The notes: generated by a model from the sequence alone, not told the origin. A stretch of DNA of 18,913 nucleotides from a virus (IMGVR_UViG_2671180298_000003:1-18913); one strand, 5' to 3'; counted from the first letter of the stretch, positions 1,614-18,913 are shown. Made by a program: numbers and translations.

Positions 1614-3712
1614 AACCATCCTCCGGAAGTCAGCCAGGGGTTAACATCGTCAGTTACTGTTTTCTTCCGTTTTTGTTTTTTAACAGGCGTGGATACCGGT
1701 TCCGGTGAGGGTGACGGTTCGGTACTGTCCGGGACACACTCCAGCCAGGTTTCCAGGCTCGCCCACTCCGGTGCATCCGGCCAGCGGATCTTTTCGTATC
1801 CATGCAGAATGACCAGAGCCTCGGCATACACCATCAGGTCAAAAGCTTCGTTGGCACCGCGACCCGGCTTACTCCATTTCCCGTCACTACTCCGCTCTTC
1901 ATACGTCAGTTCGTCGTAAAACCAGCTCCCCAGCCAGTCAGGGAAATGCACATAGCCGGGACCTGGAGAGTCACGCCATAACGCGTTATTCACCCGGTCT
2001 TTCAGGGCATCCGTCTGAAGAAGCCAGAGCGGCACATCACCTGCGGCCTGCGCCCGTCGGCCCGTTCGTCCGGTGTTATCAGGGAATGTACGGGTGATCA
2101 GTTTTGCGCGCCGGATGCTGTCGCCCTTAAACAGGTAAATACGTTTACCAAGGCCATCACGACGGCAACGACGCCAGAATTTATAGGCATTATCAGTGAC
2201 CCCGTCTTCACCGCCGGAGTCCACCGCCATTGCCATCAGTCGCATTTGTTGAGAAGGATCGGAGGCCAGCGGCCAGCTTTTATGAAAAACATCCGTCAGC
2301 AGGACATCCCAGTCTTCCGGATAGCTGGCCGGATCAATTCGCTGGCTCTCCCCGTCGCTGTCACCGCGCAATGACTGCGTGATGTTGTAACGATCAATAA
2401 TCCAGCGTTCGCCACGGCTGCCATAGCCCGTTACCTGAACCACAAAACGGCGATGACGTCCCGCCTGCACATCCACTGTCGCCACCAGGAAATTAACGCC
2501 ATCCGGCACACTGCGGGAAGGAACTGGCTCTGCCCGCTGCTCAAGCAGTTCACTTTTTCGTTGCTCCATGCTGGCACGGGGAAGATAAGGTAATCCCCAG
2601 TCGGTATTGATAACCGTCTTGAGTGTTTCTTCACTTCCGGTTGTCTCGTATTCCTGTTCTGCAGTAAGCAGTTTGTAAACGAGTTGCGAGAGTGTCTGGT
2701 AAGCAGCTGCCGGACCCTCCATCCAGAATGACGCAATACGTGAGCGTCGGGGATCACCATAACGACTGCCATCCGCATTGATGGATTCACCATCCCGCAA
2801 CCAGACCCCACGTCCGTTCAGCTCACGTTTTTGTTCAGGCATAATCCGTCCTGAACAGGAAGGACACTGAATATAAGCCGCCTCACTTGCCAGCACGGGA
2901 TCGGCAATATCACGGAAACCAGCAACCACATCGCCGCAGGGCTGAAAATACTCACCACAGTGTGGACAGGGCCAGTACCAGCGACGGCGATCGCCACGGT
3001 TATAGAGCGACAGTATCCCCGTGGTTGGTGGAGCCTCATGCGGTGAAGTCCGTCGCCATTTCACATCCTTCACATCCCTGCCGGGGGAACTCTCCACCAG
3101 CGTCATACCACTGGACATAAATGTGGTGGTACGTTTTGAGGCAAGAGAGAAGGCATCCCCCTCGCCATCAATATCTTCCGGAAAACGGTCATAATCCGTC
3201 AGCGCCACGCATTTATAATCTGATGAGGACATGATATTGACTGACGGCCAGCCGATTTTCAGGTAGTTGCCAGCAAGGAATGTTCTGTCATAAACGTTGT
3301 TGTCATTTTTGTTCGGACTCAGGCGACTGACCACTTCCGGGCTGACGCGAAACGTTCTGGCAAGTCGTTTTTTGGAGTGTTCGCGGGCTTTTTCCTCCGT
3401 CATCTGAATGATCAGCATATCAGCAGGATCGCAAATCACATTGTAAATCACCCAGCCGTCAATCAGGCCGATAGTCTTGCCAGTTCGTGCCGGGCCAACA
3501 AATATCACTGCGTCGTATTCACGCGAGGCCAGGCAGTTCATCGGCTCAATAACATACGGTGCCACCAGCGGATCCCACGGGACTGAATTCCCGGCCCCCA
3601 TGGGCACCCGCATATACTGAGCAACGGCATCAGCAACCAGCATTCGTCTCGGTGCGCGAAGGATATAACCTGAATCGGTTCGTGCTGCCTTTGCGGTTTC
3701 CTGATTCAGCAT
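1610..3712 (-). CDS. Terminase large subunit (lambda gpA family)
   Basis: 700-aa ORF; Walker A-like GPARTGKT; CPHCGE zinc motif as in lambda gpA; GGAGG SD 5 nt upstream of ATG; start overlaps the TerS stop (TAATG). Confidence 0.9.
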   Translation of the reverse strand: MLNQETAKAARTDSGYILRAPRRMLVADAVAQYMRVPMGAGNSVPWDPLVAPYVIEPMNCLASREYDAVIFVGPARTGKTIGLIDGWVIYNVICDPADMLIIQMTEEKAREHSKKRLARTFRVSPEVVSRLSPNKNDNNVYDRTFLAGNYLKIGWPSVNIMSSSDYKCVALTDYDRFPEDIDGEGDAFSLASKRTTTFMSSGMTLVESSPGRDVKDVKWRRTSPHEAPPTTGILSLYNRGDRRRWYWPCPHCGEYFQPCGDVVAGFRDIADPVLASEAAYIQCPSCSGRIMPEQKRELNGRGVWLRDGESINADGSRYGDPRRSRIASFWMEGPAAAYQTLSQLVYKLLTAEQEYETTGSEETLKTVINTDWGLPYLPRASMEQRKSELLEQRAEPVPSRSVPDGVNFLVATVDVQAGRHRRFVVQVTGYGSRGERWIIDRYNITQSLRGDSDGESQRIDPASYPEDWDVLLTDVFHKSWPLASDPSQQMRLMAMAVDSGGEDGVTDNAYKFWRRCRRDGLGKRIYLFKGDSIRRAKLITRTFPDNTGRTGRRAQAAGDVPLWLLQTDALKDRVNNALWRDSPGPGYVHFPDWLGSWFYDELTYEERSSDGKWSKPGRGANEAFDLMVYAEALVILHGYEKIRWPDAPEWASLETWLECVPDSTEPSPSPEPVSTPVKKQKRKKTVTDDVNPWLTSGGWL

Positions 3713-4206
3713 TACTCCTCCTGCTGTAATTCCTCCTCATCATCCGCACCTGCTTCGGTCACCCGCAGGGCTATCTGATCGCGCAGATCATCAATAATGG
3801 ACTGAACACGGCTCACAGCGGCAGGCTGCAGGCCGCAGTCACGTTCCAGAATATCCGGTAATGTCTCCAGCACCTGCACGACCGCTTTTGCCCAGATGGC
3901 AAACTCCCGTCTGACATCACTGGCCGGAATGAGTTGTGCCGTTTCCTGTTCGAACTTAAGACGCTCACGTTCAGACTGATACCAGGCTTTGCGTTCATGT
4001 GGATCCATTTCGCCCTCAGCAACCGGCGGTGGTAACCCCATAAATTCAGTCAGAATATCGGTCAACCGGTATAGCTTGAGTTTGTCATGTCCACCAGCGG
4101 GACGAATGTTTTTCAGTCTTGCCACGACAGTCTGGCGGTGCAGACCAGATATCCGCATGCAGCTCGTCGTGATGCTTTCTGCACAAAGGCAACACAAAGA
4201 GGTCAT
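3712..4206 (-). CDS. Terminase small subunit (Nu1-like); start unresolved (GTG 4227 / ATG 4206 / ATG 4158)
   Basis: Immediately upstream of and coupled to the large subunit; HTH-like GLHRQTVVARL near the N-terminus, acidic C-terminal tail; the 5' end overlaps the upstream DUF968 gene in another frame. Confidence 0.6.
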   Translation of the reverse strand: MTSLCCLCAESITTSCMRISGLHRQTVVARLKNIRPAGGHDKLKLYRLTDILTEFMGLPPPVAEGEMDPHERKAWYQSERERLKFEQETAQLIPASDVRREFAIWAKAVVQVLETLPDILERDCGLQPAAVSRVQSIIDDLRDQIALRVTEAGADDEEELQQEE

Positions 4207-5057: not shown

Positions 5058-5867
5058 TCAATGAACGGTATCGAGCAGCTTTAACAGCTCAGGGAATCGG
5101 GATTCGAAGAAATGCGGCTGCGTCTCGCGCGGATTGGCGGGACTGGTGATGTTCTTGCCGAACATGCAGCCTTTCGCTGTCAGCGACCAGAATTTTTTGA
5201 TGTTGTTAATCGCGGTACGGCTGTATCGTTCGCGCTGCTCGACGATCCCCAGCTTCACCATCTGGTGATATGCCTGATTAGCTGTCAGGCGGATACCATA
5301 CTGCTTCAGCAGTGCACTCAGTGACAGCGTGGGGCGGCTTGAGCCATCAGGCGCGTCAGCAGGAGCATCAATGGCATAGCGCGGTGCCAGATTCGGTAAG
5401 CCAACAGCCTCCTGGAGTTTCTGACAGGCACCAAGCACTGAAGAGTTAGACAGGTTTAATTCCCGGCGCATAAAGTCCAGCAGAATCACACCAGCCTGCA
5501 TCTTGTCAGCAGCCTGTCCGGATAATTTTTCCGGTGCGCTGGTTACCATGTCGAAAGTACGGATCACCTTCAGATGGAATGACGGGCTGATCCACATTGC
5601 ATAGGCATACACCAGTTCCTTGCAGACATACGTTCCCCGTTCATTTCCCCCATGAATCACACTCACCGGGTCAACACCCAAATTCTGGGTGTTGGTCAAT
5701 TCATGAACAAGCTCAACAGTTTGTTGGCTGGAAAGAAACTTTCCTGGCTCCTTGGTTCTGGCATTTGCACCAGATGCTACTGCTGCGCGATGCAGATCGT
5801 TCAGGCTGTAACGCCCATAAGCATCACGACGAACTTCAATACCATCAATGACCATCAGATTATTCAT
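5058..5867 (-). CDS. KilA-N domain-containing phage protein (antirepressor-like)
   Basis: 269-aa ORF; N-terminal KilA-N pattern (IDGIEVRRDAYGRYSLNDLHRAA ... GTYVCKELVYAYAMWISPSFHLKV); GAGGAG SD upstream of ATG. Confidence 0.7.
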   Translation of the reverse strand: MNNLMVIDGIEVRRDAYGRYSLNDLHRAAVASGANARTKEPGKFLSSQQTVELVHELTNTQNLGVDPVSVIHGGNERGTYVCKELVYAYAMWISPSFHLKVIRTFDMVTSAPEKLSGQAADKMQAGVILLDFMRRELNLSNSSVLGACQKLQEAVGLPNLAPRYAIDAPADAPDGSSRPTLSLSALLKQYGIRLTANQAYHQMVKLGIVEQRERYSRTAINNIKKFWSLTAKGCMFGKNITSPANPRETQPHFFESRFPELLKLLDTVH

Positions 5868-13618: not shown

Positions 13619-14155
13619 ATGTCATTTATTAAAACTTTTTCCGGGAAGCATTTTTATTATGACAAGATAAATAAAGACGACATCGTGATTAACGATATCG
13701 CGGTTTCCCTTTCAAATATCTGCCGCTTTGCCGGTCATCTTTCTCACTTCTACAGTGTCGCCCAACATGCGGTGCTTTGCAGCCAGCTGGTGCCGCAGGA
13801 ATTTGCTTTTGAAGCGTTAATGCATGATGCAACAGAAGCGTATTGCCAGGATATTCCCGCTCCACTGAAACGCCTTCTTCCTGACTATAAACGGATGGAA
13901 GAAAAAATTGACGCCGTAATCCGTGAGAAATACGGGTTACCCCCAGTTATGAGTACGCCCGTGAAATATGCCGATCTTATCATGCTGGCAACCGAACGCC
14001 GCGATCTCGGGCTTGATGATGGCTCTTTCTGGCCTGTACTGGAAGGCATCCCGGCAACAGAGATGTTCAACGTGATTCCACTGGCACCTAGCCATGCCTA
14101 CGGGATGTTTATGGAACGTTTTAACGAGTTATCGGAGTTACGCAAATGCGCATGA
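13619..14155 (+). CDS. yfdR: HD-domain phosphohydrolase, YfdR-like 5'-deoxynucleotidase
   Basis: 178 aa from ATG 13619 (GGAG SD); HD signature H...HD (SVAQHAV ... LMHDATEA); ORF-track GTG start at 13592 is probably an extension. Confidence 0.7.
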   Translation: MSFIKTFSGKHFYYDKINKDDIVINDIAVSLSNICRFAGHLSHFYSVAQHAVLCSQLVPQEFAFEALMHDATEAYCQDIPAPLKRLLPDYKRMEEKIDAVIREKYGLPPVMSTPVKYADLIMLATERRDLGLDDGSFWPVLEGIPATEMFNVIPLAPSHAYGMFMERFNELSELRKCA

Positions 14156-14508
14156 ATGTTTTCGAAATGGAAGGGTTTCTTCGCGGGAAATGTGTACCGC
14201 GAGATCTGAAAGTGAACGAAACAAATGCTGAGTACCTGGTACGTAAATTCGACGCGCTTGAAGCTAAATGTGCGGCACTGGAAAACAAAATAATACCAGT
14301 GTCAGCTGAACTGCCACCAGCAAATGAAAGTGTTCTGTTATTTGATGCTAACGGAGAAGGCTGGCTGATTGGCTGGCGTTCTCTCTGGTACACTTGGGGA
14401 CAAAAAGAAACCGGAGAATGGCAGTGGACATTTCAGGTCGGGGACCTTGAAAACTTCAATATCACTCACTGGGCAGTAATGCCAAAAGCGCCGGAGGCTG
14501 GAGCATAA
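14146..14508 (+). CDS. DUF551-like phage protein (YfdS-like)
   Basis: 120 aa; C-terminal ITHWAVMPKAPE motif; GGAG SD; overlaps upstream stop. Confidence 0.55.
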   Translation: MRMNVFEMEGFLRGKCVPRDLKVNETNAEYLVRKFDALEAKCAALENKIIPVSAELPPANESVLLFDANGEGWLIGWRSLWYTWGQKETGEWQWTFQVGDLENFNITHWAVMPKAPEAGA

Positions 14509-15128
14509 TGACCACATTTACCAATAAAGAACTGATTAAAGAAATCAAAGAACGAATCAGCAGCCTAGAGGTTCGAGACGATATTGAGCGCCGTGCTTAT
14601 GAAATTGCTCTGGCATCGCTAGAAGAGGAGCCGGTGGCATGGCTGCATTCAGAAAATGGCTTAGGTATTCCGGCAATAACGAGGAGTAAAAACATTGCTG
14701 ACAGTTGGTTATCAAAGGGCTGGTATGTTCAGCCGCTATATATAGCCAAGCCAGTGCCGGTGGTGCCAGATGCTCGTCCGTCTTTAAATAATGGCATAGT
14801 CGGCTTTGATGAAGGCTGGAACGCCTGCCGCGCCGCCATGCTTAATGGTGCCGAACCTGTAAGCCAGACTTACAAGTTGAACGAGCTGTCGGGCAACTCT
14901 CCGGTAACTCCGGATGGTTGGATAAGCTGTAGTGAGCGAATGCCGAACGATAAACAGTATGTTTGGTGTTGGGGTAAGTCTTACGGCTGGACTGAGTGCG
15001 ATACCTTCGAAGGGTATTACGATTGTTCGAGAAACAAATGGTGGGCAGTTACTGACAATGGGGAAGAACCGGCATCGAAAGTAACCCACTGGATGCCGCT
15101 ACCGGAGCCACCGCAGGAGGTGAAGTAA
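14508..15128 (+). CDS. DUF551-domain phage protein (YfdT-like, longer form)
   Basis: 206 aa; C-terminal W...ERMP...VTHWMPLPEPP motif; TAATG overlap with upstream gene. Confidence 0.55.
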   Translation: MTTFTNKELIKEIKERISSLEVRDDIERRAYEIALASLEEEPVAWLHSENGLGIPAITRSKNIADSWLSKGWYVQPLYIAKPVPVVPDARPSLNNGIVGFDEGWNACRAAMLNGAEPVSQTYKLNELSGNSPVTPDGWISCSERMPNDKQYVWCWGKSYGWTECDTFEGYYDCSRNKWWAVTDNGEEPASKVTHWMPLPEPPQEVK

Positions 15129-15322
15129 TGAACAACTTAATGACAACTAAACAAGTCGCCGACTTCTGTGGCGTTTCAGTATCGACCGTTCTTCGCTGGA
15201 ACAGCGTAAACAGGAGAACTGGCCAGAAATACAGGCCAGACTTTCCAGATCCTGATATTAAATCATGCCCAAATAAATGGGCATCACGCAAGATTTACAA
15301 ATTTGCGGGAGTTATTGAGTAA
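15128..15322 (+). CDS. Excisionase-like HTH DNA-binding protein (AlpA/TorI family)
   Basis: 64 aa; HTH MTTKQVADFCGVSVSTVLRW; strong AGGAGGTGA SD; last gene of early-left operon, facing the integrase. Confidence 0.7.
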   Translation: MNNLMTTKQVADFCGVSVSTVLRWNSVNRRTGQKYRPDFPDPDIKSCPNKWASRKIYKFAGVIE

Positions 15323-15357
15323 CGAGCATTAGCTCAGATGAGAGTTGGTACACCTAT

Positions 15358-15398
15358 GGCACAGAGCTAAACCTGATCTGTTATATTCGCTCTGTGCC
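15358..15398. repeat. Perfect 10-bp inverted repeat GGCACAGAGC / GCTCTGTGCC with 21-nt spacer between convergent genes
   Basis: Read directly from sequence; nested TAGCTC/GAGCTA repeat at 15330-15369; no U-tract on either strand. Confidence 0.4.
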
Positions 15399-15429
15399 GG
15401 AAGTATGCCATATTTATTACATACAGTTG

Positions 15430-17562
15430 TCAATCTTTAAGACTAATTGTGATTGCATCTGGAAATCCAATTTGGCTATAGCACATAGTTTCGGTTATGA
15501 ATAATTTTCTATCGATAAAATCAAGTACATCTTTTTTCGTGAGCCCCGTTAACATCGTCAATTTGTTAATTACATAATCATACCAATCATGGTGAAGCAT
15601 GTTTATATACATGTTAATATCAACTGCATCTTTCTTCCATGAGTTATTCGGTATCAAATCTTCAGATAAAAATCCTCTTATTAAATCGCTTGCATAGGAC
15701 ATCCTAAGAAAAACAGAAAGAAAAAGCCTTACATTAACATGTGTAAAATTTGTAGATAGCGTCGAAGGAAACTCGTAAAACCGGTAGATCAACCGACTTA
15801 CAAACACAGCAGAGTCTATCGCATTTACTGGCAGTAATGTTCCGATGACACTTAATGCACCACTTATAACGAAGCCATTAGCAACAGAGGCATGAGAACC
15901 GCTTAGGGCAGATGTTAAACATGCACTCAGAATTACGATAGGAGGAATTCTTGCTATTTTTCTCAAACTCCAAGTGTCCACTTTATCCTCACCTATTATT
16001 AACCATCCATGACTCCCATTGCCATCATGGTTTCCATGACAATCCATAACAAGAATATGACCTTGATATTGATTTAGAGCATCAATAAACTCAGCTTTCG
16101 ATCTAACATCAATAATCTCGCAATCAAGATCTGGCATCTGTTTTTTAAATATCTCAATTGCGTTCTCTAATATGAACTTTAAGTGATCATCAGGCTCAAA
16201 AGAACGTATAACTAAAACCTTTCTCAACTCAGATGCTTTTACTAAAACGCGCGGAAAAGCAGAGGCGCTCTGTAGAAGAACGTTACCAGGCGTAGCATTT
16301 ATTCTTGATATCTCATGACTGAACATTATAGGTATGTTATTAAACCTAATCCAATCCAATGGTACATCACAAACAAAGGACAAATCGCTATAGTTTTTAC
16401 TTATATATGTTCTCAACTTGCAACCAAGGGCTCTTCGAATAACAGTATTGAATGCTTTAGATTTAGTGATGAATGCTTCACTATTTATCCCAGAAGAAGT
16501 TGCAAGATCTTCAAGATTTTTCAAATAATTGGAGTAATGATTTATTGCATTTGGCAATCTTATTGCTGGGATTTTTTTATTTATGCTAAATAAAGTAATC
16601 GCAGCTGTTGTTAATCGCATTTCAGCGCGTCTTAGTGAGGTGAGGTAACGGAAAGCAGGACTTTTAAAAAGTTCTTTTCTATCTGAATTTATATCAAGTC
16701 TAATTCCAGAATAGCCAGGATTCCTCAACACTCCATCAATAAGGAATTTTTTCTCAATTGTGGATAAATTTTCCGTTATTAACTCATAAAAGTCATTATT
16801 TTTATCATATAAAAAAGAGTGCATACCCGGAGCAAAAAGTAAGACTTCCGTTGGAAGTGGTATATCTAATTCCTTTAAACATTCGGTGTATGCATCAACG
16901 CTATGAAGTATTATTTCTATAAACTCTCTTTTGCTACTACCATCTTTAATTCTTTTTGGTGGAGATAGCATATAGCCAAGTGATTCAATTAACAACTCAT
17001 TGGGTAGTGTTGAATTGTTAAGCGTCGATCTCCAAGGTGATTTATTAAATAAAGCCCCTCTTCGCTTCAACTTCGTTGATATTTTCTTTTCACTGTGATT
17101 TTTTCTTATTTTATCCTCAATGAATTTCAACCGAGAGAAGAGCACCTTATCAAATGAGTATATACTATTAATCTTATTAAGTGGTAGATCAGCGCGTTTA
17201 GAATTGCAACAAATTATAGGTGGTATAGCAAAATGTTTTTTTAAAGCACAAACATACGAAAAATCTTCTTTAGCACAAAAAATTAAGCAAAATGGCGTTT
17301 GATAAATATTTGGTATTTTTTCAAGATTTTCTTTAGATATTAAAAAAATAGGATTTAGCCCGCTTAGAGTAGGCTGAAAGTTATCATTTTCATTGACAAA
17401 AATCTCACTAATTTCTTTTGGTGTTTTGGCCAATAAAAAAAGAATGTTGGATATCTCTGGGTTGAGGAGGCCAGTATCGAAACCTTGGATTATGGTTTGT
17501 TCCCCAGTAGTAGGCATGATTACAACTTTAAGTATCGCCCCGTGTTCCTGTAACAGTTCCAT
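15430..17562 (-). CDS. CHAT (caspase-like) protease domain protein with ~470-aa uncharacterised N-terminal region; candidate phage-defence/abortive-infection cargo
   Basis: ATG at 17562 with AGGA SD 6 nt upstream (ORF-track TTG at 17619 adds 19 hydrophobic residues); caspase/CHAT His-Cys dyad context ILVMDCHGNHDGNGSHGWLIIGED ... IPPIVILSACLTSALSG ... GALSVIGTLLPVN; strongly AT-rich relative to flanks. Confidence 0.7.
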   Translation of the reverse strand: MELLQEHGAILKVVIMPTTGEQTIIQGFDTGLLNPEISNILFLLAKTPKEISEIFVNENDNFQPTLSGLNPIFLISKENLEKIPNIYQTPFCLIFCAKEDFSYVCALKKHFAIPPIICCNSKRADLPLNKINSIYSFDKVLFSRLKFIEDKIRKNHSEKKISTKLKRRGALFNKSPWRSTLNNSTLPNELLIESLGYMLSPPKRIKDGSSKREFIEIILHSVDAYTECLKELDIPLPTEVLLFAPGMHSFLYDKNNDFYELITENLSTIEKKFLIDGVLRNPGYSGIRLDINSDRKELFKSPAFRYLTSLRRAEMRLTTAAITLFSINKKIPAIRLPNAINHYSNYLKNLEDLATSSGINSEAFITKSKAFNTVIRRALGCKLRTYISKNYSDLSFVCDVPLDWIRFNNIPIMFSHEISRINATPGNVLLQSASAFPRVLVKASELRKVLVIRSFEPDDHLKFILENAIEIFKKQMPDLDCEIIDVRSKAEFIDALNQYQGHILVMDCHGNHDGNGSHGWLIIGEDKVDTWSLRKIARIPPIVILSACLTSALSGSHASVANGFVISGALSVIGTLLPVNAIDSAVFVSRLIYRFYEFPSTLSTNFTHVNVRLFLSVFLRMSYASDLIRGFLSEDLIPNNSWKKDAVDINMYINMLHHDWYDYVINKLTMLTGLTKKDVLDFIDRKLFITETMCYSQIGFPDAITISLKD

Positions 17563-17645
17563 CAAAAATCCTAATAAACAAATAAAAATGTTATAATCAA
17601 AAACTGCAAGGATTAGCAAGCAATTCTTACAGTTTTAAGAAGGGG

Positions 17646-17671
17646 ATTATACCGCAATATGCATAATTGCG
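17646..17671 (-). promoter_or_regulatory. Putative promoter of the CHAT gene: perfect -10 TATAAT (minus strand) abutting a 19-bp palindrome CGCAATATGCATAATTGCG
   Basis: Read from sequence; palindrome occupies the -35/spacer position; no good -35 hexamer. Confidence 0.4.
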
Positions 17672-17695
17672 TTCTGCCTATGCAAAATGTCAGTT

Positions 17696-18913
17696 CTAGT
17701 CTGAACAAGTACAAGTAACTATCGATTCAACCCTCTCCCACCACGCCTGGTAAGCTTTACGCTGTTCTTCTAAATAATCGCTCTTGTCATAAACCTGCCA
17801 TACCCCTGGCAGTTTATGACCGAGCATTATTTCTGCAATATGAGGCGCAGTAAGATCAGAAAAGTTTGTTCGTGCTGTTCGTCTCAAATCATGAAGAGAC
17901 CAATGAGGGAATTGATACCCCAAACGCCGCCATGCGTACTGCATTAAATTGTAAGGCAGCGACTGCAATGATGTCCGTCCAACGGGCTCCCTGCTTCCTT
18001 CCTTAGTAAAAAGCATATCGGAACCATTGTTCATAGAGATAACGTACTTTATAAGCTCTTCAACCGGTTCAATAATGGGGCGCTTTAGCGGTTCGCCTGT
18101 TATATCCCCTGTCTTATGTCGTTCTGGCGGTACAGTCCATACCTTATTTATGAAATCAAAATCATCCACCCTAGCAGTAATTAGCTCCGAACTACGGCAA
18201 CCAAAATGCAGTAATAGTTTAATGAAGGCCCGGTATTTGGGAACCATTCTAGAGCCATCGATCGCAGCATAAAGAATTTTAATTTCATCGTGTGTCAGAA
18301 ACCGTTTCTTCTGACCTTTACGGATATCCATATCTTTACCCGTGATATCCGACAGCGGGCGAGTTTCAATAAGCTTTCTCTTATACGCCCAGACATGGGC
18401 CTGCTTTGCGTTAATTAGCAATCGGTCTGCTATTGCTGGAGTCTTAGTGCTAAGAGGCTCCAAGACTTCTAACCAATCATGCAATGTAGCTGCATCGTGA
18501 GGGATATTCCCGATTTTAGAGAACAGGTGCAGCTCAAACGAGCGGAGTATCTGTTCAGAACCCTTTTTATTTTTTACACAATATGCTTCATACCAGGCAC
18601 GGATCACAGACTCTACCGTCATGGCTTCAGTAGCTTTTCGTTTTTCAGCCTGCTTGACCAATCGTGGATTACGGTTTGACTCGAGTTCACCACGGAGACG
18701 GATAACTTCTTCTCTGGCCTCTTTTAATCCAGTTGCCGGGTAAGTTCCGATATCAAGACGCTCACCTTTCCCTGCCCATTGATAACGATATTGGAACACT
18801 ACGCGACCTTTCGGTGATACTCTGACAGACAGACCATCACGATCGGATTTAACCAAAACCTTATCACGTTCCTTTCCAACGACTGAACGCAACCACGCAT
18901 CAGACAGCGCCAT
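17696..18913 (-). CDS. int: Tyrosine-type site-specific integrase, P4-like family
   Basis: 405 aa; N-terminal arm-binding-type domain (GLSVRVSPKGRVVFQYRYQWAGKGERLDIGTYP); C-terminal catalytic residues (HDLRRT ... Y); start codon is the last three bases of the window. Confidence 0.85.
   Translation of the reverse strand: MALSDAWLRSVVGKERDKVLVKSDRDGLSVRVSPKGRVVFQYRYQWAGKGERLDIGTYPATGLKEAREEVIRLRGELESNRNPRLVKQAEKRKATEAMTVESVIRAWYEAYCVKNKKGSEQILRSFELHLFSKIGNIPHDAATLHDWLEVLEPLSTKTPAIADRLLINAKQAHVWAYKRKLIETRPLSDITGKDMDIRKGQKKRFLTHDEIKILYAAIDGSRMVPKYRAFIKLLLHFGCRSSELITARVDDFDFINKVWTVPPERHKTGDITGEPLKRPIIEPVEELIKYVISMNNGSDMLFTKEGSREPVGRTSLQSLPYNLMQYAWRRLGYQFPHWSLHDLRRTARTNFSDLTAPHIAEIMLGHKLPGVWQVYDKSDYLEEQRKAYQAWWERVESIVTCTCSD

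Follow-up and report, generated by a model that had tools for sequence, protein, structure and literature searches.

We propose that a single-gene "moron" cassette, a piece of accessory cargo dispensable for phage growth, makes up the AT-rich islet lying between an HTH gene and the integrase of a lambdoid prophage, and that its product is BovA, the only component of the Borvo defence system. As the best explanation of the islet as a whole, we hold this reading with high confidence. The islet occupies positions 15323-17695 of the window, by which we mean the whole 18,913-nucleotide stretch of viral DNA that was analysed, and corresponds exactly to the gap from the stop codon of the HTH gene to the stop codon of the integrase.

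An earlier note, made from the sequence alone, had described this segment as separately acquired cargo encoding a CHAT (caspase-like) protease, possibly a stand-alone defence or abortive-infection gene. That part holds, since the protein belongs to a family, BovA, that has been cloned and shown to defend. The novelty implied in the note does not, as the gene falls into a defence family that already has a name. What we describe is a rediscovery of a known system, not a new kind.

Prophage setting

The gene content read across the window is that of a lambdoid prophage. It comprises the terminase large subunit, DUF968, KilA-N, a DnaD-like replication protein, Rha/Ash, CII and a CI-type repressor, together with DUF2303/YfdQ, a YfdR-like protein, DUF551, a 64-aa HTH protein and a tyrosine integrase. 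The genes neighbouring the islet are ordinary lambdoid lysogeny and early genes, and none of them gave a defence-family match. The features around the islet are as follows.

15128-15322, plus strand: 64-aa HTH protein in the excisionase/AlpA-like position; HTH_17 and HTH_23 below cut-off; kept in related prophages
15346-15410, no strand: hairpin GGCACAGAGC ... GCTCTGTGCC (inverted repeat I1) between the convergent stops of the HTH gene and bovA
15381-17665, no strand: variable AT-rich cargo cassette, 2,285 bp, GC 0.340, delimited by loss of homology with related prophages
15430-17562, minus strand: bovA, stop codon included, 710-aa Borvo defence protein (PADLOC BovA; RefSeq WP_000421881.1, "CHAT domain-containing protein")
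17569-17572, minus strand: Shine-Dalgarno AGGA, 6 nt before the ATG, read from the sequence
17590-17619, minus strand: candidate promoter TTGCTA, 18 nt, TATAAC, read by hand, entirely within the cassette
17646-17671, minus strand: palindrome CGCAATTATGCATATTGCG (17653-17671) lying just ahead of a TATAAT (17646-17651)
17696-18913, minus strand: tyrosine integrase, 405 aa (Pfam Phage_integrase, Arm-DNA-bind_3 and Phage_int_M)

By its Pfam matches the integrase has arm-binding, central and catalytic domains. That the left flank is an excisionase-like gene, as had been claimed, is plausible; the HTH_17 and HTH_23 matches are weak and sub-threshold and do not prove it.

The islet is 100% identical to that of E. 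coli O145:H28 RM12761 (NZ_CP007133.1), where the corresponding region stops at the integrase, adjoining yjjG. Over a wider 4.8-kb stretch (14146-18913) the identity is 99.7%. The gene order departs from that of RM12761 in the part upstream of about 12.6 kb: in the window the terminase and DUF1441 adjoin DUF968, and there is no IS3. Gene order and the 99.7% identity, taken together, indicate that the window derives from a related but different mosaic prophage.

The DUF551 protein (14508-15128 in the window; 5186-5806 in locus L007 and 3186-3806 in locus L008) is labelled "valyl-tRNA synthetase" in phages cdtI and Ayreon. This label looks like a propagated misannotation, as Pfam gives only DUF551 here.

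Identity and distribution of the protein

Borvo and its protein BovA are reportedly to be credited to Millman et al. 2022. A PADLOC run, which the earlier note had recommended for the locus, returned a full-length match to the BovA profile (PDLC03831; E 2.1e-241, 801 bits), with residues 4-709 aligned to positions 3-715 of the 720-position model. Nine relatives at 31-85% identity score lower against the same profile (592-760 bits). These profile scores place the protein firmly in the BovA family of the Borvo system. PHROGs assigned it to a family without annotation, and a literature search for BovA in combination with CHAT returned unrelated papers only.

The bovA gene is present in 32 of 5,426 complete E. 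coli genomes as a single allele, at least 99.5% identical throughout, and a sensitive blastn search gave the same picture. The exact protein occurs on 507 contigs, under the source names "CHAT domain protein" or "hypothetical protein". From the single E. coli allele, the top BovA score and this wide occurrence we strongly infer that the window protein is the same as that of the Borvo gene cloned from E. coli 403116. Temperate phages cdtI and Ayreon carry the same cassette next to int at 99.6-99.7% identity, annotated as hypothetical; in cdtI, a CDT-converting phage, bovA lies near cdtABC.

Some copies are broken. In O121 Shiga-toxin-producing E. coli (L009, 301-2432; L010, 301-3699) a 1-base deletion splits bovA into ORFs of 260 and 396 aa, and in one O121 strain the gene is additionally interrupted by IS600. 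Annotation splits bovA in 9 of the 32 carrying complete genomes, two of which were examined directly. The frameshifted and IS-interrupted copies in O121 strains show the gene to be dispensable to the host, a point that counts against our reading.

Protease core and domain layout

We divide the protein, partly on the basis of its AlphaFold2 model (pLDDT 85.6, pTM 0.87), into these parts, all encoded on the minus strand.

17083-17562, minus strand: residues 1-160, N-terminal alpha/beta domain with a generic flavodoxin-like (receiver / Argonaute-MID-like) fold
16393-17055, minus strand: residues 170-390, second alpha/beta domain and helical segment, conserved in the family (secondary structure of the model)
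15733-16386, minus strand: residues 393-610, caspase-like CHAT protease core (Pfam, invariant motifs, Foldseek)
16036-16038, minus strand: codon of His509
15919-15921, minus strand: codon of Cys548

The assignment to CHAT/caspase-like proteases is supported by Pfam, by structure prediction combined with Foldseek and by the conserved His and Cys. Pfam CHAT (PF12770) matches residues 488-592 (15787-16101) at 26.5 bits against a gathering threshold of 24. A profile search against PDB sequences gave a marginal match only, to the Cys region of a CHAT protein (E 0.01), so that it took a fold search to establish the relationship. Foldseek of the model against the PDB retrieved Csx29/TPR-CHAT (E 1.3e-7), separase (7e-7 to 5e-5) and SAVED-CHAT (7e-5 to 2e-4).

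The homologue search yielded 34 clusters, nearly all of 700-720 aa; the named ones come from Enterobacterales. In an alignment of 31 family members reaching down to 31% identity, the residues D507-C508-H509-G510, H512, G514 and S546-A547-C548 are invariant. They lie in the motifs DCHGNHDG (His509 and His512) and LSACLTS (Cys548), both invariant in these 31 members. Conservation thus confirms His509 (in DCHG) and Cys548 (in LSAC) as the predicted catalytic pair. The earlier note had pointed to the same His and Cys motifs and also to the His of a "SHGW" stretch; this last His is not conserved.

Outside the core, the model predicts a beta-alpha-beta arrangement for residues 1-160, an alpha/beta region for 170-300, a helical one for 302-390 and a mainly helical C-terminal part (611-710). 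Many N-terminal residues are invariant in the 31-sequence alignment as well, and so are R168, T185, G196, P245, N281, Y284, S285, R311, E314, P332, R335 and P337 in the middle region. In Foldseek, the alignments with Csx29 and with separase extend over about 375 columns, more than the catalytic core alone would occupy, which suggests that the middle region falls partly within an extended CHAT module. In terms of the model, residues 170-390 are possibly the non-catalytic half of a CHAT module of the separase/Csx29 type. The claim that about 470 N-terminal residues match nothing recognisable therefore stands for about 300 of them, for which only the generic flavodoxin-like fold was found, while the rest is covered by the CHAT-type fold match of about 375 columns.

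Residues 1-160 are presumed to be a sensor or regulatory part. When a profile of the N-terminal 300 residues was run against 1.84 billion representative proteins, 137 clusters were obtained, most of them 700-770 aa long and matching at their N-terminus; the shorter ones were taken for fragments. To judge from these matches, the N-terminal part seems to travel only with the BovA-type protease, rather than being a portable sensor module.

Start site and regulatory elements

The islet was expected to hold one gene of about 710 aa, and it does, on the minus strand. The sole long ORF of the AT-rich stretch extends over 15430-17619 and would encode 729 aa from an upstream TTG, the start used in PHROG 34827 and in the annotation of phage Ayreon. 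We dropped this start and adopted the ATG at 17562 instead: AGGA precedes it at a distance of 6 nt, homologues all begin with MELLQ, and RefSeq likewise gives 710 aa.

A consensus promoter scan called zero minus-strand promoters upstream of bovA, and its total matches were fewer than expected from shuffled sequence. As the scan accepts only -10 hexamers that end in T, it does not call the TATAAC candidate at 17590-17619. At the TATAAT (17646-17651) the scan calls no promoter, and the -35 there is poor, with none that would be acceptable. The earlier note had given the gene its own TATAAT with an operator-like palindrome. Both sequences are present, the palindrome being CGCAAT-N7-ATTGCG. It straddles the cassette boundary (17665|17666): the cassette contributes one arm and the conserved flank of the integrase the other. 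In the other cassettes found at this junction the cassette-side arm is missing. The operator role is consequently unsupported, and we regard the palindrome as a feature of the junction. Several other cassettes end instead in GTCCGC...GCGGAC hairpins near the junctions.

At the opposite end, the hairpin at 15346-15410 has a predicted RNA folding energy of -30.2 kcal/mol (z -2.77). It is a possible two-way terminator, though it carries no T-run. An Rfam search of 15000-18000 gave nothing credible.

Cassette boundaries and exchange of cargo

The AT-rich character of the islet was confirmed. In 500-bp segments, GC is 0.32-0.38 over 15251-17750 versus 0.43-0.57 in the rest of the window; for the cassette as a whole it is 0.340 versus 0.506 outside it, and leftward segments of the same length (2,285 bp) all have at least 0.454. 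The cassette edges were set by comparison with five related prophages that occupy the same site in the chromosome: homology with them ends at 15372-15398 and returns at 17663-17680.

In these prophages both flanks are 93-98% identical to those of the window, and different AT-rich single-gene cassettes (GC 0.32-0.37) lie between them. The comparison of the int-xis junction across relatives, proposed in the earlier note, thereby bears out its idea of separately acquired cargo. The cassette of locus L002 carries a defence gene of the dGTPase family (PADLOC dGTPase, 349 bits). Loci L003 and L006 share a gene for WP_000653746.1, a 331-aa protein (phrog_5157) whose hydrophobic stretches probably span the membrane. 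WP_000040218.1 (239 aa, phrog_8440) is encoded in L004 and WP_225092812.1 (342 aa, phrog_7779) in L005. These last three proteins have no Pfam, PADLOC or NCBIfam match, and their PHROG families are without assigned function.

The exchange of bovA for a dGTPase defence gene and for other cassettes places it in a hotspot of the defence type. We tentatively suggest that AT-rich single-gene defence cassettes replace one another at the xis-int junction, and that at least one of its three uncharacterised occupants could be a new anti-phage gene; we give this proposal serious weight, while holding it slightly short of evenly balanced. In the literature searched we found no description of the lambdoid xis-int cargo site as a location of Borvo.

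Proposed mode of action

The Borvo system of E. coli 403116 was cloned into MG1655 as a single gene with its native promoter (construct SG178 of the Sorek laboratory; Stokar-Avihail). Phages T5, SECphi4 and SECphi18 escape it through missense mutations in the proofreading cleft of their polymerase. When the SECphi4 DNA polymerase is expressed, only Borvo-carrying cells suffer toxicity, which mutant polymerases relieve. For a group of five systems including Borvo, abortive infection was supported by infecting liquid cultures at high MOI. For the family, one gene suffices, and so does the phage DNA polymerase as trigger. Later papers still call the system "poorly understood".

On this background, a possible course of events is the following. 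In the lysogen, BovA would be expressed from its own promoter and kept inactive, with the conserved N-terminal 390 residues as the likely sensing and autoinhibitory part. After infection by a phage with its own family-A DNA polymerase (such as T5, SECphi4 or SECphi18), the polymerase, or something that depends on its proofreading cleft, would activate BovA; this trigger step was shown for the system of E. coli 403116. The CHAT protease would then use His509 and Cys548 to cleave at least one cellular or phage protein, as its fold and conservation suggest. Finally, the infected cell would arrest or die and the spread of the phage would be halted, in keeping with the abortive infection shown in the literature. 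The window itself contains no polymerase gene, and the carrier prophage should therefore not trigger its own cargo. We are highly confident in this overall explanation, i.e. BovA of Borvo as a polymerase-triggered CHAT protease acting by abortive infection.

Other explanations have to be weighed against it. The BovA family might act without proteolysis, with the CHAT part as a scaffold or binding module that, for example, sequesters or blocks the phage polymerase, and with toxicity arising otherwise. The literature searched yields no report of catalytic-dyad mutants or of a protease substrate for Borvo, and a single-protein trigger, with escape mutations clustered in one cleft, fits direct binding. 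We nevertheless consider this unlikely: invariance of His509, Cys548 and the caspase-type motifs down to 31% identity would be unexpected in a dead enzyme, and co-expression is toxic to the cell, which points to an effect beyond inhibition of the polymerase. It is still less probable that BovA depends on a partner whose gene lies elsewhere in the prophage or in the host, and is not truly stand-alone. The single native-promoter construct worked in MG1655, which is without bovA, and here the neighbours have no defence-family matches and cassettes swap as single genes, in agreement with the single-gene definition of Borvo. The existence of a "Borvo-like" two-gene variant, reported in Streptococcus thermophilus, is what speaks in favour of a partner. 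A host factor or substrate for BovA is possible.

We give the least credit, and very little, to the view that bovA serves the prophage itself, for instance by controlling lysogeny or by acting on the host as a virulence factor, its defence activity being incidental. The temperate phages cdtI and Ayreon do carry the gene beside int, in cdtI close to cdtABC. On the other hand, close relatives lack the cassette and have unrelated genes in its place, which sets it outside the phage life cycle; neither a signal peptide nor a secretion context is present, and the family is a tested defence system. All three alternatives appear less likely than the action of BovA as a polymerase-triggered protease.

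Significance

A real stand-alone defence gene was recognisable here from sequence alone, and no new kind of system is added by it. Of use to work on Borvo are the dyad (His509/Cys548), the domain layout and the finding that proteins of BovA length are almost the only ones to contain the N-terminal 300 residues. The remaining interest lies in the Borvo substrate, in the sensing of the polymerase proofreading cleft and in the alternative cassettes of the junction. The latter is a compact cargo site with sharp boundaries in lambdoid prophages of E. coli, and could be mined for new single-gene defences.

Comparison with known CHAT systems

Csx29/TPR-CHAT (Craspase, type III-E CRISPR-Cas) is the best structural match to the protease part of BovA (about 376 columns at the E-value given above). 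Like BovA, it is a caspase-like His/Cys protease that brings about abortive infection once activated. The two differ at the N-terminus, which is TPR in Csx29 and alpha/beta in BovA, and in the trigger, a target RNA for Csx29 and a phage protein for Borvo. Membership in Csx29 was rejected, as the NCBIfam score is 14.7 bits against a cut-off of 300, the N-terminus is not TPR and CRISPR genes are missing; neither gRAMP/Cas7-11 nor Csx30 nor a CRISPR array was found near bovA.

SAVED-CHAT, a protease activated by cyclic oligonucleotides in CBASS, is also a CHAT effector in anti-phage immunity and is among the fold matches. We rejected this assignment too, since the protein has no SAVED match and the window no cyclase. 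A gasdermin-activating protease was likewise dismissed, the cassette consisting of one gene only, flanked by the HTH gene and the integrase. The earlier note was thus right that partner cyclase, gasdermin and CRISPR genes are lacking nearby.

Separase is a eukaryotic protease of the CHAT type. Its layout, in which the active protease comes after a non-catalytic half, may be common to BovA. At the same time the two share only about 10-14% identity, and separase has an unrelated N-terminal region and unrelated biology.

Finally, compared with Borvo/BovA itself, the window protein agrees in its end-to-end profile match (710 aa on a 720-position model), its single gene, its CHAT part and its origin in E. 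coli. No difference between them is detectable, and we infer that it is identical to the 403116 allele.
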